A stretch of DNA of 64,000 nucleotides from Candidatus Woesearchaeota archaeon (GTDB lineage Archaea > Nanobdellota > Nanobdellia > Woesearchaeales > WJKR01), in assembly GCA_016927245.1 (NCBI GenBank), contig JAFGNA010000006.1:17230-81229 (forward strand), read 5' to 3'. How positions within the stretch are numbered: position 1 is the first letter of the stretch; the number at the start of each line of letters is the position of its first letter. The notes beneath the pieces are model-generated. The model was not told the origin of the DNA, did no database searches, and saw only the letters and a list, made by a program, of their open reading frames with translations. The translations under genes and the position numbers were made by a program. This document shows positions 3,300 through 38,663 of this stretch, piece after piece.

Positions 3300-3329
3300 A
3301 AAAATAGGAAAAAAATGTGGAGGAAAAAT

Positions 3330-3671
3330 TTACTTCTTCTTCCTCTTGGTGAGCTTCCTTTTTGCGGGCTTCTTCTTTGCCGCTTTCTTCGCTGCTTTTT
3401 TCTTTGCGGGCTTCTTCTTTGCCGCTTTCTTCGCTGCTTTTTTCTTTGCCGGCTTCTTCACAGCCTTCTTGACTGTTTTCTTTGCTGCTTTTTTCTTTGC
3501 GGGCTTCTTCTTTGCCGCTTTCTTCGCTGCTTTTTTCTTTGCCGGCTTCTTCTTGGCGACCTTCTTCACAGCCTTCTTGACCGTTTTTTTCGCCTTCTTC
3601 GCGACCTTCTTCACAGCCTTCTTCGCTTTCTTCTTCACGGGCTTCTTCTTTGCCGCTTTCTTCGCTGCCAT
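3330..3671 (-). CDS. Lysine/alanine-rich tandem-repeat basic protein (histone H1/HC1-like low-complexity DNA- or RNA-binding protein).
   Basis: The 113-aa translation is almost entirely AKKAAKKKPAKKK repeats. The DNA shows about 70-nt tandem repeats across 3360-3660. The plus-strand F-rich ORF 3346-3720 is its mirror-image artefact. Confidence 0.5.
   Translation of the reverse strand: MAAKKAAKKKPVKKKAKKAVKKVAKKAKKTVKKAVKKVAKKKPAKKKAAKKAAKKKPAKKKAAKKTVKKAVKKPAKKKAAKKAAKKKPAKKKAAKKAAKKKPAKRKLTKRKKK
3360..3660. repeat. In-frame tandem nucleotide repeats encoding KKAAKKKPAKK units.
   Basis: A recurring cttctttgccgctttcttcgctgcttttttctttgc(g/c)ggcttctt unit is visible at least four times. Confidence 0.6.
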
Positions 3672-14397: not shown

Positions 14398-14515
14398 CGA
14401 GCCTGGAGGGATTCGAACCCTCGACCTAGTGCTGGCTCCTCCGCTGTTGCGGGAGTAGGAGGCACTCGCGCTTTCTGGAGATTGAAAAAGCCTATCCAGG
14501 CTGCGCTACAGGCTC
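14398..14515 (-). tRNA. tRNA, probably tRNA-Arg(CCU), carrying two introns. One of about 21 nt lies in the D-arm region and one of 22 nt at the canonical 37/38 site.
   Basis: The minus-strand read shows acceptor GAGCCTG/CAGGCTC, T-arm GAGGG-TTCGAAT-CCCTC, anticodon stem AGTGC/GCACT and loop CUCCUA|intron|A. The gene is 118 nt versus about 75 nt for a mature tRNA. The extra sequence between GCGC (10-13) and its partner GCGC implies a second insertion. Confidence 0.55.
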
Positions 14516-27866: not shown

Positions 27867-28409
27867 TTGAGGAGAATGTGCTATTTAAAGATTATGTATT
27901 TTCCTGTGCAGGTAATCTTAAATAGGTGTGCTGGCTGCTGTGTTGTCATGGTCTCTGAGTATTGGCTTCCTCATCACTATGCTTCGTTGGTTATGGCCTC
28001 TTCTTTCCCTGATGTCGGTGCTGTCGCCATGACCGTCGCGAGAAGCATGCCGCAGCCGTTGTGCCAGGTGTGCGGCCCTATCAGCACGGGCGGTTATGGC
28101 TCGTTGGAGCGCAACCTCGAATTGTTCGGGGAAACGATAGCCGCTCTGAGGATGCAAGGGAAGCACGTCTTCGACCAGATGCCCCTAGAGGATTCCTTGC
28201 TCAGGATACGTGCCTCGTTGGGCGAGTCGTATGATTGGCGAGGATTACTCACTGATGTCTACCTGCCGTTGTTCGCGTTAGGCGTGGTCAAGACCCTGTA
28301 CTTCATCCACGGCTGGGAATCTTCTCGTGGTGCGCGGTGGGAGCATGACGTGGCGGGGCGATTGGGTATTGCTAGGGTATACCTACCAGAACGGTTCTTG
28401 CTGGAATGA
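27867..28409 (+). CDS. Hypothetical protein.
   Basis: 180-aa ORF. The start is possibly internal. No confident family. Confidence 0.3.
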   Translation: MRRMCYLKIMYFPVQVILNRCAGCCVVMVSEYWLPHHYASLVMASSFPDVGAVAMTVARSMPQPLCQVCGPISTGGYGSLERNLELFGETIAALRMQGKHVFDQMPLEDSLLRIRASLGESYDWRGLLTDVYLPLFALGVVKTLYFIHGWESSRGARWEHDVAGRLGIARVYLPERFLLE

Positions 28410-28412
28410 ATA

Positions 28413-28568
28413 TGGCGCCGCGGGTGGGATTTGAACCCACGATCCCAAAGGGACAGGATGTTTGGCATTGCTGGTATTCTGATACACCAATAGGTATATA
28501 GCAATCTTACACGCCAGGAAGCTCATTGCTTGCCTGTCTCTGCGCAATACCAGGCTATGCGACCGCGG
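28413..28568 (-). tRNA. Intron-containing tRNA with a long (about 80 nt) intervening sequence. It has class-II-like features and resembles archaeal tRNA-Ser in the acceptor and D-arm. The anticodon is unresolved.
   Basis: The minus-strand read shows 5' GCCGCGG-UC-GCAUAGCCUGGUAUUGCGC (canonical D-loop with GG). The 3' part is GUGGG-UUCAAAU-CCCAC-CCGCGGC-G with a perfect 7-bp acceptor. A possible CCC-UUU-GGG variable-arm hairpin is present. The span is 156 nt. A paralogous gene lies at 38525-38663. Confidence 0.5.
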
Positions 28569-28607
28569 CATGGCTTGCACGCAGGTGTGAGAATCACCAG
28601 TTCCTTT

Positions 28608-29150
28608 TTAAATGTTGCTTTTCATTTTTTGCAGTTGCTTTATATTGATAAGGCCTATTTCTTCCATGAATTGTTTGCAACGCACTTTGCCGGATATGCG
28701 AAGGTGTTTTGAAGGCCCACCCCTTTTCTTTGGGATGTAGGTCCAGGTCGATGTTTTTATGCCGAATTCAGTGAGTGGTTGTTCGACTTGATTGGTGAGT
28801 GTGAATGAAGCGTTTGCGAACGGTATGGTCAGATAAGAATTTTTTCTGGACGCACACGCTACCATCTGCTGCGAACAGCCCGCGCAAAAACCTTGCTTTG
28901 ATACTTTTTTTTCTCCTGACATGATTGCCCTTGGTATCTCGACAGTTCTCGTTTTCTTGCCTGGTGGGAATCCTCCTTTATAGAGGAGGGCATGGAACGC
29001 TTTATCGGTGCACCGGATGCCATAACAACCGTTCTTTCCTCCGCTGCGATGTTTCCCTTCGAACGGGAAGTCATAGACGCGCTTCAATAAGGGGATGATG
29101 TGCTTGTCGTAGAACTCTTTTTCGTCGTTGTTTCCCCGTAGTTCCCACAT
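28608..29150 (-). pseudogene. Decayed LAGLIDADG-type homing endonuclease-like ORF in an AT-rich island immediately upstream of tRNA 28413-28568.
   Basis: The translation resembles the C-terminal half of LAGLIDADG enzymes (YLTIPFANASFTLTNQ...KHLRISGKVRCKQFMEEIGL). A second overlapping frame (28859-29074) suggests frameshifts. GC content drops sharply versus the flanks. Confidence 0.35.
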
Positions 29151-29331
29151 GTCTCCCTGGGTGGTTCTGTACAGCGTCCCATCACCTGCGTGAAGGCCCT
29201 AATTCAGCCAAATCCTCGGTTATCATCTCTGTTCTTGGGTGTTGTTTTTCTCCACTTAAACGCTACGTCAACACTTGTCCAGTGCTTCCCTGAGCGCAAA
29301 CCTTTTAAATCGCTTCGGACAGGACTGCTTC

Positions 29332-32259: not shown

Positions 32260-32389
32260 AGCGGAGTGGAGCAGTCAGGAGTGCTCGCAGAAATCATTTC
32301 ATTGCGAAATGGTTGCGGAAGGCTCATAAAAGGGTTATCTAACCCTTAGAGGCACCCTGAGGTCAAAGGTTCAAATCCTTTCTCCGCTA
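32260..32389 (+). tRNA. Initiator tRNA-Met (CAU) with two introns. Intron 1 (about 30 nt, 32291-32320) lies inside the anticodon stem and intron 2 (about 25 nt, 32330-32354) lies at or next to 37/38.
   Basis: A1:U72 acceptor AGCGGAG/CTCCGCT with discriminator A is present, as is D-arm GAGC/GCTC. After removing the inserts, the anticodon stem is CAGGG/CCCTG (three G-C pairs, initiator hallmark) and the loop is CUCAUAA. T-arm is AAAGG-TTCAAAT-CCTTT. Intron 1 contains a CATTTC/GAAATG hairpin. Confidence 0.65.
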
Positions 32390-32454
32390 TTTTTTCTTTC
32401 CACTGGTCATCTGCACGCACAGCAACTATATGCTTTCTTGTTCCTCGAGTTGTT

Positions 32455-33072
32455 ATGCAGGTTATTGATGAGAAGCTCGCTGAACTCGTAGGCGTTCTCC
32501 TTGGCGATGGTTCAATCAACACTTCAGTGTCGGGCAATCTATTGTGGACTCGTGTTCAAGTCACTTTTCATTCTGAGCAGAAGGAATACATTGAGTATGT
32601 TCGTTCATTGATGGAAGAGGTGCTGGGTGTGAATCCGATATACAAGAAACGACGCGCTCAGAATTGTGCAGACCTACAGATTTTTCGTTTTGCTGTGTTG
32701 AGGGATCTGCTTTTGATAGGGATGCAATTGTCTCCTAAATGGGATAGGGCGCGAATACCTCTCATGTTCATGAACAAATACTTCGGTAGATTTGTGCTCC
32801 GCGGATACTTCGATACTGACGGAAGTGTCGTGATTGCGAACAATAATGGTACTCGTTATCCTCGACTAGAGATGAAGATAAGCCCTTCTCCTATGCAAGA
32901 ACAGCTATTGATGCTCTTAGACTTGCATGGGTTCCATTATGGAGTCTATGATATTGGGAAAGGGAAAGTGCGTGTGCAGATGAACGGATTCTCTGCCTTG
33001 AAGAGATGGAATGAGGAGATAGGTTTCTCGAACAGCTATTATCAGGAGAGATGTGACTCTTTCTATACATAA
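32455..33072 (+). CDS. Free-standing LAGLIDADG homing endonuclease (double-motif).
   Basis: Two LAGLIDADG motifs are present: LAELVGVLLGDGSI and LRGYFDTDGSV. The gene is about 45% GC versus about 60% for the flanks and starts 65 nt after the two-intron initiator tRNA. Confidence 0.8.
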   Translation: MQVIDEKLAELVGVLLGDGSINTSVSGNLLWTRVQVTFHSEQKEYIEYVRSLMEEVLGVNPIYKKRRAQNCADLQIFRFAVLRDLLLIGMQLSPKWDRARIPLMFMNKYFGRFVLRGYFDTDGSVVIANNNGTRYPRLEMKISPSPMQEQLLMLLDLHGFHYGVYDIGKGKVRVQMNGFSALKRWNEEIGFSNSYYQERCDSFYT

Positions 33073-38524: not shown

Positions 38525-38663
38525 CGCCACCGCCCGGATTCGAACCGGGAATCCCGTGAGGGACCGGCTAACCAGGTATTCTTCCATGGTGAAGAATATC
38601 ACTCAAGGCTTACGCTCACCTTTAAGGGGTGATCGGCGCAATACCAGGTTATGCGACGGTGGC
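38525..38663 (-). tRNA. Intron-containing tRNA (about 65-nt insert) paralogous to 28413-28568. Class-II-like, anticodon unresolved.
   Basis: 5' GCCACCG-UC-GCAUAACCUGGUAUUGCGC matches the other gene at 24 of 26 positions. The 3' part is CCCGG-UUCGAAU-CCGGG-CGGUGGC-G with a perfect acceptor pairing. A CCC-UCAC-GGG variable-arm-like hairpin is present. Confidence 0.5.

Follow-up and report, generated by a model that had tools for sequence, protein, structure and literature searches.

A three-exon tRNA-Ser(GCU) gene beside a dead LAGLIDADG endonuclease gene: a candidate decayed homing cassette in a woesearchaeal genome

Why does a decayed, low-GC reading frame lie directly upstream of a tRNA-like gene whose middle segment cannot belong to a mature tRNA? 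The two were noticed on the minus strand of a 64-kb stretch of woesearchaeal DNA (hereafter the window, meaning the whole stretch analysed), and a first-pass annotation had placed them in an AT-rich island. Base composition agrees with this description: GC content is 46.7% in the upstream gene, an endonuclease pseudogene, and 44.4% in the tRNA introns, compared with 61% in the tRNA exons, 56–61% in the flanking genes and 57.4% in the window overall.

Judged by sequence reading and in-silico splicing, minus-strand positions 28569–28416 (position 1 to discriminator G73), together with the adjoining CCA, are a class II tRNA-Ser(GCU) gene of three exons interrupted by two bulge-helix-bulge introns. 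The 7-bp acceptor stem is perfect (GCCGCGG at 28569–28563 with CCGCGGC at 28423–28417), the discriminator G lies at 28416 and CCA is encoded at 28415–28413. The D-arm reads GCAU-AGCCUGGUA-UUGC, with G18 and G19 in its loop, and the T-arm reads GUGGG-UUCAAAU-CCCAC, with a loop that fits UUCRANY. Acceptor stem, D-loop and T-arm had already been described in the first-pass annotation, and our reading returned all three at the same coordinates; these features were also picked up by a purpose-built tRNA detector. Exon 1 (28569–28540, positions 1–29) carries the 5′ acceptor strand, the D-arm, G26 and C27 A28 G29. Exon 2 is an 8-nt micro-exon, GAUUGCUA (28506–28499), which corresponds to positions 30–37 of intronless genes and holds U33 and the anticodon GCU, while exon 3 (28459–28416, positions 38–73) supplies A38, UCCUG, the variable arm, the T-arm, the 3′ acceptor strand and G73.

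Removing minus-strand positions 28539–28507 and 28498–28460 leaves an 82-nt tRNA that folds as a cloverleaf and is called Ser(gct) by ARAGORN, bearing out the foldable product that had been expected from bulge-helix-bulge junctions. Its anticodon arm, CAGGA-UUGCUAA-UCCUG, has five Watson-Crick pairs, a 7-nt loop, U33 and a purine at position 37, and its 13-nt variable arm, UCCCUUUGGGAUC, forms a 4-bp hairpin. The earlier suggestion of a class II, tRNA-Ser-like gene is upheld by this product, which outside the variable arm is identical to the intronless Woesearchaeota gene L041 950–1031, itself scoring 58.3 bits against the Rfam tRNA model (gathering score 29). The middle segment of about 80 nt is indeed foreign to the mature tRNA, but it is not the one long intron first proposed: two short introns, of 33 and 39 nt, surround the 8-nt exon at 28506–28499. 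A non-canonical intron or a split anticodon arm had been offered as alternatives, and both turn out to be true, with one intron splitting the anticodon stem at 29/30 and the other at 37/38.

The same architecture is seen in related loci. The exon 1 block is conserved with an identical endpoint in 13 of 13 homologues, exon 3 is likewise a conserved block, and the micro-exon is unchanged in 11 of the 12 Ser(GCU) homologues, the remaining one (L144) having GACUGCUA. Homologues keep the variable arm with other sequences, such as GUCCGCAAGGACU, and the spliced genes of the window, L010 and L141 fold as class II cloverleaves. Applied to all 13 homologues, the same splicing rule gives a perfect 5-bp anticodon stem every time, and the stem covaries (CAGGA/UCCUG, CUGGA/UCCAG, GUAGA/UCUAC, UAGGA/UCCUA and CCGGC/GCCGG).

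Other assemblies of the gene were tried and rejected. The single-intron mode of ARAGORN proposes Gly(ACC), which is implausible given its mismatched stem. A single 37/38 intron with the stem CAGAG/CUUUG would produce a class I tRNA with the loop ACAGGCN, lacking U33 and a purine at 37, and we discarded it because L002 breaks that stem yet retains the variable-arm hairpin. An intron beginning in the D-loop, with the D-arm complement described below as splice helix, leaves exons one or two bases too short or too long, and no stem results when CUGUC in exon 3 is interpreted as tRNA-Asp. A group I intron does not fit either, since its catalytic core takes at least some 200 nt and the inserts have just 33 and 39 nt, and no Rfam group I match was obtained at E ≤ 10.

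The bulge-helix-bulge geometry, which is the substrate of the archaeal tRNA-splicing endonuclease, consists of a 4-bp helix with a 3-nt bulge at each end, one per strand, both cut after their second nucleotide. On their predicted pairings, both introns of this tRNA-Ser(GCU) gene are relaxed forms of the motif. In intron 1 (33 nt, 28539–28507, non-canonical position 29/30), G24–C27 pair with GUGU in the central helix (GCGC with GUGU, two Watson-Crick and two G-U pairs), flanked by the bulges AG/A and AA/G, where the stroke marks the cut. Compared with the strict hBHBh′ form, its inner hairpin (GACAGG...CCUGGC) is present and its outer helix with exon 2 has only 3 bp. All four central pairs, with G-U allowed, can form in 11 of 13 homologues; position 27 shows compensatory changes in L141 (GCGG/CCGU) and L143 (GCGU/ACGC), and intron 1 of L010 is a textbook bulge-helix-bulge motif. 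The sequence of intron 1 differs among loci with its helices retained.

Intron 2 (39 nt, 28498–28460, canonical position 37/38) pairs U32–C35 with CCAA (UUGC with CCAA), making three of the four central pairs in the window, between the bulges UA/U and AC/A; all four pairs form in six homologues (L005, L010, L012, L014, L089 and L137). It lacks a conventional inner helix, and the anticodon stem can serve as its outer helix only once intron 1 has been removed. Within the intron are a hairpin that covaries (UAUACC-UAUU-GGUGUA) and the sequence AAUACCAGCAAUGC, complementary to the D-arm of the same tRNA. Such D-arm complements are enriched, with a summed longest match of 85 against a maximum of 69 in 2000 shuffles, and the minimum-energy fold pairs AAUACCAGCAAUGC with the D-arm. 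The covarying pairing of positions 18–23 with intron 2 may supply both the outer and the inner helix. The complement is not a methylation guide of the tRNA-Trp type, since the UGAUGA and CUGA elements of a box C/D guide RNA are absent from both introns.

These pairings suggest an order of events in the precursor. A TATA-box-like element, TTTAAAAA (28612–28605), lies about 36–43 nt upstream of tRNA position 1 and overlaps the endonuclease stop codon (TAA, 28610–28608), much as stop codon and T/A box overlap in L002, L005, L008, L009 and L010; we infer that it is a candidate promoter of the tRNA. Transcription would probably start from this promoter, which lies within the 3′-terminal part of the endonuclease gene, and the leader would have about 13 nt. 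The first intron to be removed is probably intron 1, because the anticodon stem, as outer helix of the intron 2 motif, needs C27–G29 joined to G30–A31. The 3′ part of intron 2 would form a conserved pairing with the D-loop and D-stem (around positions 18–23), stacking between both central helices and keeping the precursor in a splicing-competent form rather than a cloverleaf.

Default ARAGORN does not report the unspliced gene, and an Rfam search of it stays below the gathering score and, when relaxed to E ≤ 10, matches nothing but the T-arm. This silence, like the mismatch in the central helix of intron 2 in the window, could mean that the tRNA is dead or disrupted by insertions, its ‘introns’ being junk inserts that are never removed. 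Such a reading is scarcely credible in view of the homologues, in which exons stay constant and inserts diverge across at least 13 loci, and compensatory changes keep both the splice-site helices and the anticodon stem that forms after splicing. Moreover, a scan of the 64-kb window with the tRNA detector found no further Ser(GCU) gene, and tRNA-Ser(UGA) and tRNA-Met(CAU) of the window share the same layout of two introns at 29/30 and 37/38. Three of the five tRNA genes found in the window by this purpose-built detector, with types of multi-intron genes partly assigned by eye, are missed by ARAGORN and Rfam (Ser-GCU, Ser-UGA and Met-CAU), owing to the micro-exon between two introns in each; the 29/30 plus 37/38 rule recovers them. 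The tRNA-Met(CAU) gene, with introns at the same two positions as Ser(GCU), also adjoins a LAGLIDADG gene (32455–33072), which is intact and encodes 205 aa, so that the window holds a second pair.

The reading frame upstream of tRNA-Ser(GCU) (180 aa, minus strand, 29150–28608) had been taken for the C-terminal half of a homing endonuclease. The similarity is real, as the unrepaired frame matches Pfam LAGLIDADG_3 at E 5e-5, but the extent was underestimated: three-frame translation makes an entire two-domain, I-DmoI-like gene recognisable from the ATG at 29226 to the TAA at 28608, once three frame breaks are bridged (GGG at 29199–29197, an A8 run at 28912–28905 and an A6 run at 28845–28840). 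The frame-repaired protein matches LAGLIDADG_3 (PF14528) at E 4e-15 with 56.3 bits. Both motifs, GLHAGDG and GLFAADG, are encoded in the pseudogene DNA, the 180-aa frame carrying the second one out of frame. The window endonuclease is 45–58% identical to intact homologues of 200–215 aa, and the catalytic residues D16 and D122 are invariant in a 31-sequence family alignment; the family has a mean column identity of 42% and a shared block, RSGGKNGCYG. An AlphaFold model of the closest intact homologue, P0002 (pLDDT 96.4), shows the alpha-beta-beta-alpha-beta-beta-alpha fold twice over and has I-Tsp061I (TM 0.71), I-DmoI and intein endonucleases as its top structural matches, while a PDB sequence search with the repaired protein gave weak matches only, to intein endonuclease domains (E 0.16).

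This copy is a pseudogene, as the first-pass annotation had suspected, and three frameshifts inactivate it. The frameshifts all lie in homopolymer runs, so sequencing error was considered; a second assembly, from Logan, shows 100% identity here and reproduces all three, but it probably derives from the same reads, which leaves room for a systematic error. The stop codon lies 38 nt before tRNA position 1, placing the reading frame outside the tRNA in the window. Upstream of the ATG, at a distance of 58 nt, is a conserved element, CACTGGACA (29284–29276), followed by a TTTAAG box at 29260–29255. The general motif CA[CG][TA]GGACA occurs 27 times in 87 endonuclease loci; in 22 cases it lies in coding orientation no more than 260 nt ahead of an endonuclease start, and these upstream copies are found in several clades, often in tandem.

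The neighbourhood of endonuclease and tRNA is not peculiar to the window. In seven of seven loci read individually, an intact homologue lies upstream of tRNA-Ser(GCU), and every Ser-clade locus has both genes on the same strand at a spacing of 25–40 nt. Across at least 13 independent related loci the pair recurs with its exons kept, its introns varying and compensatory base changes present, so a chance resemblance can be set aside. Among 80 more distant metagenomic relatives, 70 have room downstream for a test, and at least 41 of the 70 have a tRNA on the same strand between −40 and +320 nt from the endonuclease, an enrichment of about 30-fold over the background of 0.0185 tRNAs per 360 nt. 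The nearest endonuclease neighbour shares the tRNA type in 39 of 43 cases, and endonuclease identity is 50% within a tRNA type compared with 31.5% between types. On this comparison of relatives, the pairing is conserved and specific, beyond mere proximity, and treating reading frame and tRNA as one module was justified.

Since integrating elements favour tRNA genes as insertion sites, the endonuclease could still be cargo or debris of an element that integrated here and has nothing to do with the tRNA or its introns. Many DPANN tRNA-Ser loci do carry a second copy of the tRNA 3′ end 40–100 nt downstream (including L010, L014, L017, L028, L043 and L125), resembling attachment-site duplications. 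We nevertheless disfavour this explanation and give it very little probability, because the interval between the flanking host genes contains neither an integrase nor any other gene of such an element, and because it does not account for the constant spacing and strand in the Ser clade, the match between endonuclease clade and tRNA identity, or the enrichment over background.

A tie this regular might instead reflect a host function. WhiA is a regulator derived from a LAGLIDADG protein, and a similarly domesticated protein, serving as a tRNA-tied transcription factor or RNA maturase and inherited vertically, would make the window copy a recent loss. Strong protein conservation with invariant blocks such as RSGGKNGCYG, the fixed position and strand with the stop codon in the T/A box of the tRNA, the conserved element upstream and fold matches that include WhiA and the bI3 and I-AniI maturases would all suit such a role. 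However, the window endonuclease is dead beside an intact and conserved tRNA, the gene is missing at syntenic loci of relatives, and the family, instead of contributing a single gene to each genome, comprises many paralogous clades that differ in the tRNA they adjoin. The two catalytic aspartates never vary, although neither a regulator nor a maturase would need them, and one endonuclease (L009) sits beside an intronless tRNA, making a role in splicing unlikely. Domestication therefore seems to us decidedly improbable.

Presence and absence at the syntenic locus bear on how the endonuclease might move. The transglutaminase/tRNA-Ser(GCU) locus has the endonuclease in the window and in L002, L005, L008, L009, L014 and L142 (seven loci), and lacks it in L027, L066 and L107. 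This patchy distribution, like the low GC content of the cassette, speaks for mobility. Introns interrupt the anticodon arm in 12 of 13 endonuclease-linked Ser(GCU) genes; among the endonuclease-less DPANN Ser(GCU) genes that were read, at least nine have no anticodon-arm introns and four have some. Endonuclease and introns are separable, since L009 has the former beside a tRNA without introns, and L066, L089, L099 and L134 have tRNA introns without an endonuclease. Many endonuclease-linked tRNAs of other clades have no intron at all, so protection of the linked copy by introns cannot be a general rule.

From these data one could argue that the endonuclease was never intron-borne in this lineage and is a free-standing enzyme that cuts intronless tRNA-Ser(GCU) alleles lacking it, by collaborative or intronless homing. 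Break repair would then copy the endonuclease together with the resistant, intron-bearing tRNA, using the flanking synteny (the transglutaminase gene) as homology. Its patchy presence at the syntenic locus and the excess of introns beside it fit this idea, as do the differing anticodon stem of the exceptional L009 tRNA (CCACC/GGUGG) and the Logan contigs of the same sample (SRR13394437), which break precisely where exon 1 meets intron 1 (28540/28539), a pattern that alleles diverging from this point would produce; the contigs break at 28445 as well. A relic of exon 1 upstream of the window endonuclease would have spoken for an intron origin, and none was found (the best local match scored 9.0, compared with up to 9.5 in shuffled sequence). 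The pair also occurs in quite different flanks, however (L010, L012), beyond the reach of homing that depends on flanking homology, the counts of introns and endonucleases are not phylogenetically independent, and two relatives show that the family can be intron-borne. We consider a purely free-standing history unlikely, if less so than domestication.

The two relatives in question are tRNA-Leu loci. In L160 the endonuclease reading frame lies between exons 1 and 2 of tRNA-Leu(UAA), the spliced product being called Leu(taa), and the similar L159 has it within intron 1 of a tRNA-Leu, with complementary intron ends. Further loci preserve what appear to be traces of such an arrangement. About 155 nt upstream of its endonuclease, L138 has a TATA-like box and an intron-less copy of tRNA positions 1–34, and L140 and L207 have shorter upstream copies of the tRNA 5′ part; in all, exon-1 relics are found in L138, L140, L160, L170 and L207, and 3′-end relics in L145 and L014. 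The L138 relic extends 5 nt into exon 2, past 29/30, and an insertion at about 34/35 would explain it no worse than an old exon 1 would. As for a tRNA 3′ relic downstream of the window tRNA, nothing rose above shuffle level. With neither relic in the window, an account of intron origin rests on other loci and clades.

Taken together, the best explanation of the locus, which we favour with some reserve, is that the three-exon tRNA-Ser(GCU) and the dead LAGLIDADG gene are a decayed tRNA-targeting homing cassette. The endonuclease would belong to a DPANN-wide family of homing elements that target tRNA genes. Ancestrally, its reading frame would have lain within the first tRNA intron, as in L159 and L160. 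In the derived state, exon 1 would be present twice. Its second copy, equipped with a promoter, would stand between the reading frame and the rest of the tRNA, leaving a tRNA with only a short intron 1 and an original exon 1 that decays upstream (L138, L140, L170, L207). Once this relic is lost, the endonuclease would seem free-standing, as in the window. The substrate of the enzyme would be intronless alleles, cut close to the anticodon arm; introns that interrupt the target, or an altered stem (L009), would make the linked copy immune. The window would then represent the degenerate end of a homing cycle, with the nuclease dead and the tRNA and its introns kept.

A wider proposal, which we put forward tentatively, is that LAGLIDADG endonucleases are the missing engine of DPANN tRNA-intron mobility. 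Intron-borne enzymes of the L159 and L160 type would home into intronless tRNA genes at about 29/30 to 30/31, seeding protein-spliced introns, and escape from the intron by duplication of exon 1 and a promoter would create a previously undescribed type of cassette. A selfish gene would thereby provide an essential tRNA with its promoter, and the tRNA introns would shield the tRNA from the enzyme. Read in these terms, the window would contain one dead (Ser-GCU) and one live (Met-CAU) cassette.

To our knowledge, rRNA introns and inteins are the settings in which homing endonucleases of archaea have been described until now. The comparison of relatives points to a large LAGLIDADG family locked to specific tRNA genes, some members lying in introns and some beside intron-bearing tRNAs, with fossil exon copies between these states. 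Judging from these relatives, it may be homing endonucleases that carry introns from one archaeal tRNA gene to another. Disrupted tRNA genes are numerous in DPANN lineages, with Woesearchaeota among them, and such disruption is a reason why their predicted tRNA sets look incomplete (PMC5829648); the mechanism by which archaeal tRNA introns are gained or transposed has been stated to be unknown (PMC4090602). A tRNA-linked family of this kind would offer a concrete and testable mechanism for gain and movement, and a natural test of whether tRNA introns persist by breaking the targets of mobile elements.

Multi-intron tRNA genes with non-canonical bulge-helix-bulge introns are known from Thermoproteales, ARMAN/Micrarchaeota and other DPANN archaea through the work of Sugahara and Fujishima (PMC4090602, PMC5829648). 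Like the gene described here, they have protein-spliced introns, at 37/38 and at a site outside the anticodon loop, with relaxed motifs, and are missed by standard finders. The window differs from them in the 8-nt micro-exon that holds the entire anticodon between two introns, in the covarying D-arm complement of intron 2, apparently a helix common to both splice motifs, and in the repetition of the 29/30 and 37/38 positions in Ser(GCU), Ser(UGA) and Met(CAU). The rRNA-intron enzymes I-DmoI, I-PorI and I-Tsp061I share the two-motif monomeric fold of the family and are its best structural matches (TM 0.65–0.74), and they ride protein-spliced archaeal introns, as do L159 and L160. Here, in contrast, the host gene is a tRNA, and the reading frame mostly lies directly 5′ of it, in the window too, the remaining tRNA intron having no reading frame. 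LAGLIDADG genes of Woesearchaeota have been reported in rRNA group I introns (PMC6125680). A literature search of incomplete coverage, and hence weak evidence of novelty, found no report of tRNA-linked archaeal LAGLIDADG genes.

Further parallels exist for the arrangement. F-CphI is a free-standing endonuclease encoded next to an ORF-less psbA intron of cyanophages, an example of collaborative homing. The trans homing of T4 mobE/I-TevIII offers a similar comparison (PMC2790892). As in these systems, an endonuclease lies beside an intron-bearing gene, and the two would travel as a unit, with the intron shielding the allele to which it is linked. The phage systems rely on group I introns that splice themselves and interrupt protein genes, whereas the arrangement proposed here would rely on protein-spliced introns in a cellular tRNA gene, with cleavage that is predicted. 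In the hybrid atp6 gene of Allomyces, a homing-endonuclease gene reportedly brings along a duplicate of part of its target gene. There, a displaced and decaying fragment lies by its functional replacement, recalling the exon-1 relics of L138, L140, L160, L170 and L207 and the 3′-end relics, although atp6 is a mitochondrial protein gene, whereas the DPANN relatives duplicate a tRNA 5′ exon and promoter and the window has no relic. Finally, Randau and Soll proposed that disruption of tRNA genes protects against integrating elements, as cited in PMC4090602. Introns near the anticodon would likewise break the DNA target of a mobile element here, but the proposed attacker is a homing endonuclease instead of a viral integrase, and protection would fall to the very allele linked to that attacker.

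Read directly, minus strand 28569-28413 runs GCCGCGG-UC-GCAU-AGCCUGGUA-UUGC-G-CAG... ...GUGGG-UUCAAAU-CCCAC-CCGCGGC-G-CCA, containing the acceptor stem, D-arm and T-arm recognised in the first-pass annotation. The gene consists of exon 1 (28569-28540, tRNA positions 1-29), a 33-nt intron 1 (28539-28507, between positions 29 and 30), exon 2, GAUUGCUA (28506-28499, positions 30-37), a 39-nt intron 2 (28498-28460, between positions 37 and 38) and exon 3 (28459-28416, positions 38-73), all on the minus strand. Joined, the three exons give an 82-nt RNA that ARAGORN calls tRNA-Ser(gct) and whose predicted fold is a class II cloverleaf. The exon/intron reading is fixed by an uninterrupted tRNA-Ser(GCU) gene at L009, one of the loci compared with the window (...UUGC-A-CCACC-CUGCUAA-GGUGG-ACCCCUUGUGGGUGU-CCCGG..., long variable arm; 53.4 bits with Rfam). 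We also searched 185,579 species genomes for the Ser D-arm pattern, which brought up a Woesearchaeota contig (L041) whose intronless tRNA-Ser(GCU), scoring 58.3 bits with Rfam, equals the spliced window product outside the variable arm (UUCCUUUGGAAUC vs UCCCUUUGGGAUC), independently confirming the splice junctions. We regard the tRNA-Ser(GCU) assignment and splice sites as secure, indeed next to certain.

These results agree with the earlier suspicion of a tRNA-Ser-like class II gene with a non-canonical intron or split anticodon arm, as the introns lie at 29/30 and 37/38. The ~80-nt middle, then considered foreign to a mature tRNA, is intronic, but comprises two introns (33 + 39 nt) around exon 2 rather than one. 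The bulge-helix-bulge junctions proposed as a check were found, and they yield a foldable tRNA. Across the whole window, default ARAGORN reports tRNA-Pro only, and Rfam detects two other tRNAs and misses tRNA-Ser(GCU), of which just the T-arm scores at E<=10. A Gly(ACC) call at this locus from the single-intron mode of ARAGORN was rejected for its mismatched stem.

Splice sites were assigned by a rule that asks, on each strand, for 4 nt of helix and then a 3-nt bulge cut between its second and third bases. Intron 1 has a central helix of G24-C27 (GCGC) with GUGU, bulges A28 G29|A and A A|G30, and then an inner hairpin (GACAGG...CCUGGC). Intron 2 has U32-C35 (UUGC) facing CCAA with 3/4 pairs, and bulges U36 A37|U and A C|A38, a relaxed form of the motif. 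Relaxed or non-canonical introns are processed by only some archaeal splicing endonucleases, and disrupted tRNA genes are markedly increased in DPANN lineages including Woesearchaeota (PMC5829648). The window's tRNA-Ser(UGA) gene (38526-38663 (-)) has the same two-intron layout, GCGCCG|A...GCGUAA|GCCUUGAG|U...UGGUU|AGCCGG; it is missed unspliced by Rfam and ARAGORN, its spliced form is called Ser(tga), and it has no endonuclease gene beside it. We compared 13 genes, namely these two, 10 endonuclease-linked relatives and one endonuclease-less gene (L089). In 13/13, the spliced anticodon stem has five, covarying pairs (CAGGA/UCCUG, CUGGA/UCCAG, CUGGA/UUCAG, GUAGA/UCUAC, UAGGA/UCCUA, CCGGC/GCCGG). 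The central helix of intron 1 shows compensated changes (GCGG with CCGU in L141, GCGU with ACGC in L143), and in L010 intron 1 follows the strict motif in textbook fashion, its inner helix being 9 bp long.

The 3' part of the window's intron 2 (28460-28498 (-)) is complementary to the gene's own D-loop/D-stem (28546-28560 (-)), pairing AAUACCAG-C-AAUGC with GCAU-AGC-CUGGUAUU. This complement is present in both Ser(GCU) and Ser(UGA) genes, the window's tRNA-Ser(UGA) carrying the same AAUACC in its intron 2, and it tracks changes in the D-arm: CGGUAUUG with CAAUACCG in L010, GGCCAUUG with CAAUGGCC in L141, GUAGUG with CACUAC in L012, and UGGUACU with AGUACCA in L138. Summed over the 13 genes, the longest exact complement amounts to 85 nt, against a shuffle mean of 55.6 and maximum of 69 (2000 trials), and D-arms fit their own introns better (6.5) than those of other genes (5.0). 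AAUACC lies directly 5' of the 3' strand of the intron 2 central helix in most genes, and minimum-energy folds of full precursors form the D-arm/intron 2 helix beside the intron 1 central helix. A box C/D guide was rejected as the identity of the complement because the boxes are absent. It may be a helix common to both splice motifs: a single helix (positions 18-23 with intron 2) would serve as the outer helix of the intron 1 motif and the inner helix of the intron 2 motif, and would keep the precursor from adopting the cloverleaf until both introns had been spliced out.

Directly upstream, the 180-aa ORF at 28608-29150 (NCBI protein JXA12_00985, from a Candidatus Woesearchaeota MAG) has a weak Pfam LAGLIDADG_3 match (E 5e-5). 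Three-frame translation makes a complete endonuclease gene visible from ATG 29226, with the first motif, LAEL-GLHAGDGTLY, reached past a frame break at GGG 29199-29197, and the second, FLRGLFAADGSV, in a different frame, bounded by an A8 run at 28912-28905 and an A6 run at 28845-28840. The frame-repaired protein of 207 aa matches LAGLIDADG_3 with E 4e-15. The start-proximal break severs motif 1, and the two A-run shifts cancel each other yet leave motif 2 out of frame; this copy is very probably dead, and we consider the pseudogene call secure. The first-pass annotation had described a decayed LAGLIDADG-like ORF, which the Pfam match and three frame breaks corroborate, within an AT-rich island, in keeping with a GC content that falls from 57% in the window to 46.7% in the ORF and 44% in the introns. 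Its view of the ORF as a C-terminal half stands for the LAGLIDADG similarity, but not for the extent, the whole gene being recognisable with both motifs.

Two Logan-assembly contigs of run SRR13394437 flank the intron-bearing middle of the tRNA gene, which is on neither. L215 matches the window at 100% identity across 761 shared nt, all three frame-break sites included, and ends at the last base of exon 1 (28540, the exon 1/intron 1 boundary); L001 begins in the T-arm region, just before the T-stem (28445). Contigs of de Bruijn assemblers break where alleles diverge, and these breaks offer a lead: a sample containing both intron-bearing and intronless alleles could give them.

Another 52 proteins match the endonuclease, most of them intact, 200-257 aa long and 36-59% identical to the repaired window sequence. 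The motif aspartates D16 and D122 and an RSGGKNGCYG block are invariant in a 31-sequence alignment. The closest intact homologue, P0002 (55% identity), is modelled with pLDDT 96.4 and pTM 0.92 as two alpha-beta-beta-alpha-beta-beta-alpha halves, for which Foldseek against the PDB returned the TliVMA intein endonuclease, I-Tsp061I, which is encoded in an archaeal intron (TM 0.71), and numerous I-DmoI entries. The motif CACTGGACA (CA[CG][TA]GGACA), at 29276-29284 (-) in the window, precedes the endonuclease start codon by 50-100 nt, and 22/27 of its occurrences in 519 kb (both strands) are upstream of such a start. It often occurs in 2-3 direct copies, commonly with ..GACGTGA.. and a T/A box coming next. 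It is common to several endonuclease clades adjoining different tRNAs (besides the window, L002, L005, L008, L010, L014, L135, L137, L140-L143, L145, L151, L183, L198, L202, L208 and L214), and may serve the cassette formed by the endonuclease and tRNA genes as an operator or as part of a promoter.

Genomic loci were fetched for seven homologues (L002, L005, L008, L009, L010, L012, L014). In all but L008, whose contig ends ~60 nt past the endonuclease gene, 180-320 nt separate this gene from the next called gene, and a like tRNA gene can be read downstream in 7/7, beginning 25-40 nt past the ORF. The conserved blocks are GCCSSGGUCGCAUAGCCUGGUAUUGCGCAG, then GAUUGCUA, then AUCCUG with variable arm, T-arm and acceptor; the sequence between blocks is unrelated between loci. 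In many relatives a transglutaminase-like gene and tRNA-Ser(GCU) are divergently oriented neighbours, with the endonuclease gene between them in the window, L002, L005, L008, L009, L014 and L142, and absent in L027 and L107 (no anticodon-arm intron) and L066 (intron 1 only); L010 and L012 carry the endonuclease-tRNA pair in different flanks. Scanning metagenomes with the endonuclease alignment added 80 loci (24-49% identity). Our own intron-tolerant detector, which accepts only candidates with a T-arm, GG in the D-loop and acceptor strands that match at 7/7 positions, recovers 5/5 window tRNAs. It placed a same-strand tRNA gene starting -40 to +320 nt from the ORF end in at least 41/70 loci having >=200 nt downstream, with background occurrence at 0.0185 per 360 nt; the count is a minimum, as the detector overlooks genes with an intron in the T-loop. 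Just upstream, only 3/75 loci have such a gene. The closest clade always adjoins Ser(GCU), and other clades adjoin Arg(UCG), Arg(GCG), Leu(CAA/UAA), Thr(GGU), His or Gln. The nearest relative has the same tRNA neighbour in 39/43 cases, and endonuclease identity is 50% within a tRNA type vs 31.5% between types. We hold the family-wide link to be well supported and have little doubt of it.

At two loci the ORF lies within a tRNA gene. In L159 (196-1075) and L160 (625-1458), a LAGLIDADG ORF occupies the first intron (30/31, ~750-800 nt) of tRNA-Leu(UAA). Exon 1 of L160 ends ...GGGGCAGG, the ORF match begins ~15 nt on, and downstream follow ACUUAAG, a 19-nt second intron (37/38) and AUCCUG...; the joined pieces give an 83-nt tRNA called Leu(taa) by ARAGORN. 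L159 is of the same kind, its intron ends pairing UUGGCAUGGCAUC with GAUGCCAUGCC(UUG)CCAA. Relics of tRNA ends occur elsewhere: L160 has an additional exon-1 copy ~170 nt upstream, and in L138 (Ser clade), which has a complete two-intron tRNA gene after the ORF, a copy of tRNA positions 1-34 lacking intron 1 (1313-1347), accompanied by a TATA-like box, lies ~155 nt upstream of the ORF, reading ...GCGCUG-GAUUG and then unrelated sequence. Shorter 5' copies precede the ORF in L140 (1250-1275) and L207 (29-48), 3'-end copies lie past the tRNA in L145 (+64..+95) and L014 (3413-3426), at a distance of 60-100 nt, and also in L142, L203 and L178, and the endonuclease-less L027 has a 15-nt copy of the leader and positions 1-12 (~1455-1470), 64 nt upstream of its gene. 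Such arrangements could be stages of one process, in which an endonuclease ORF would begin inside intron 1, exon 1 and promoter would be duplicated downstream of it, and the old exon would decay, so that the endonuclease gene appears free-standing. The window, with a dead ORF and flanks holding no tRNA-end relic above shuffle level, would be the last stage. Since the L138 relic ends at position 34, not 29, an insertion at the anticodon that supplied a substitute 5' part would fit equally well. Our belief in the homing mechanism, the intron origin and a protective role of the introns is tentative, ranging from rather doubtful to evenly balanced.

That introns shield tRNA genes from integrating elements is a proposal relayed in a review (PMC4090602). 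Anticodon-arm introns are present in 12/13 endonuclease-linked Ser(GCU) genes, the exception being L009, with a different stem. Among the endonuclease-less DPANN Ser(GCU) genes read, at least nine lack such an intron (L016, L027, L041, L090, L094, L095, L105, L107, L130) and four have one (L066, L089, L099, L134). Protection of the linked copy is suggestive only, because these counts are not independent and cover only the genes read, and many linked tRNAs of other clades are intronless.

The window holds a second tRNA/endonuclease pair (32260-33072 (+)), in which a tRNA-Met(CAU) with initiator-like acceptor AGCGGAG...CUCCGCU-A has exons at 32260-32290, 32321-32328 and 32354-32389 (+) and introns at 29/30 and 37/38. 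Unspliced, it is missed by Rfam and ARAGORN in the window; spliced, it is 75 nt and called Met(cat). An intact 205-aa LAGLIDADG gene (32455-33072; 43.9% GC; 28% identity to P0002) lies ~65 nt downstream. Its best relative is L138 445-1026 (44%), after which comes AGCGGAGAGUGGAC..., perhaps the 5' end of a Met tRNA.

Several further features were observed. Rfam finds an intron-containing tRNA at 14398-14515 (-) (47.6 bits over 118 nt), apparently with two inserts, an ~20-nt one in the D-loop/D-stem (GAUAG-GCUUUUUCAAUCUCCAGAAA-GCGC) and a second after the anticodon loop CUCCUA; with two inserts it would be tRNA-Arg(CCU). A 180-aa ORF with a putative TTG start (27867-28409 (+)) converges on tRNA-Ser(GCU), ending 4 nt from the encoded CCA, and matches Pfam DUF4406 marginally (22.1 bits vs a cut-off of 22); L002 has a 168-aa gene in the matching position. 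Many DPANN tRNA-Ser genes carry a further T-loop intron after UUCAAA (L012, L022, L037, L040, L089, L101, L104, L107, L109, L123, L143), defeating standard finders and our detector. On a Woesearchaeota contig (L131, minus strand ~3300-3520), a complete tRNA-Ser(UGA), GCCACCG...CGGUGGCG, is apparently nested inside another, with the outer 5' part GCCGCGA... before it and the outer T-arm and acceptor …CCGGGUCGCGGCG after.

Neither multi-intron tRNA genes nor LAGLIDADG pseudogenes are out of the ordinary in archaea, whose known LAGLIDADG homing enzymes come from rRNA introns and inteins. Within partial full-text coverage, we came across no account of LAGLIDADG genes that lie within archaeal tRNA genes or are locked beside them, nor a published endonuclease gene inside an archaeal tRNA intron, as in L159 and L160. 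The mechanism of tRNA intron transposition is stated as unknown (PMC4090602), and the LAGLIDADG enzymes reported from Woesearchaeota are encoded in rRNA group I introns, with 39/39 of the introns studied located in rRNA genes (PMC6125680).
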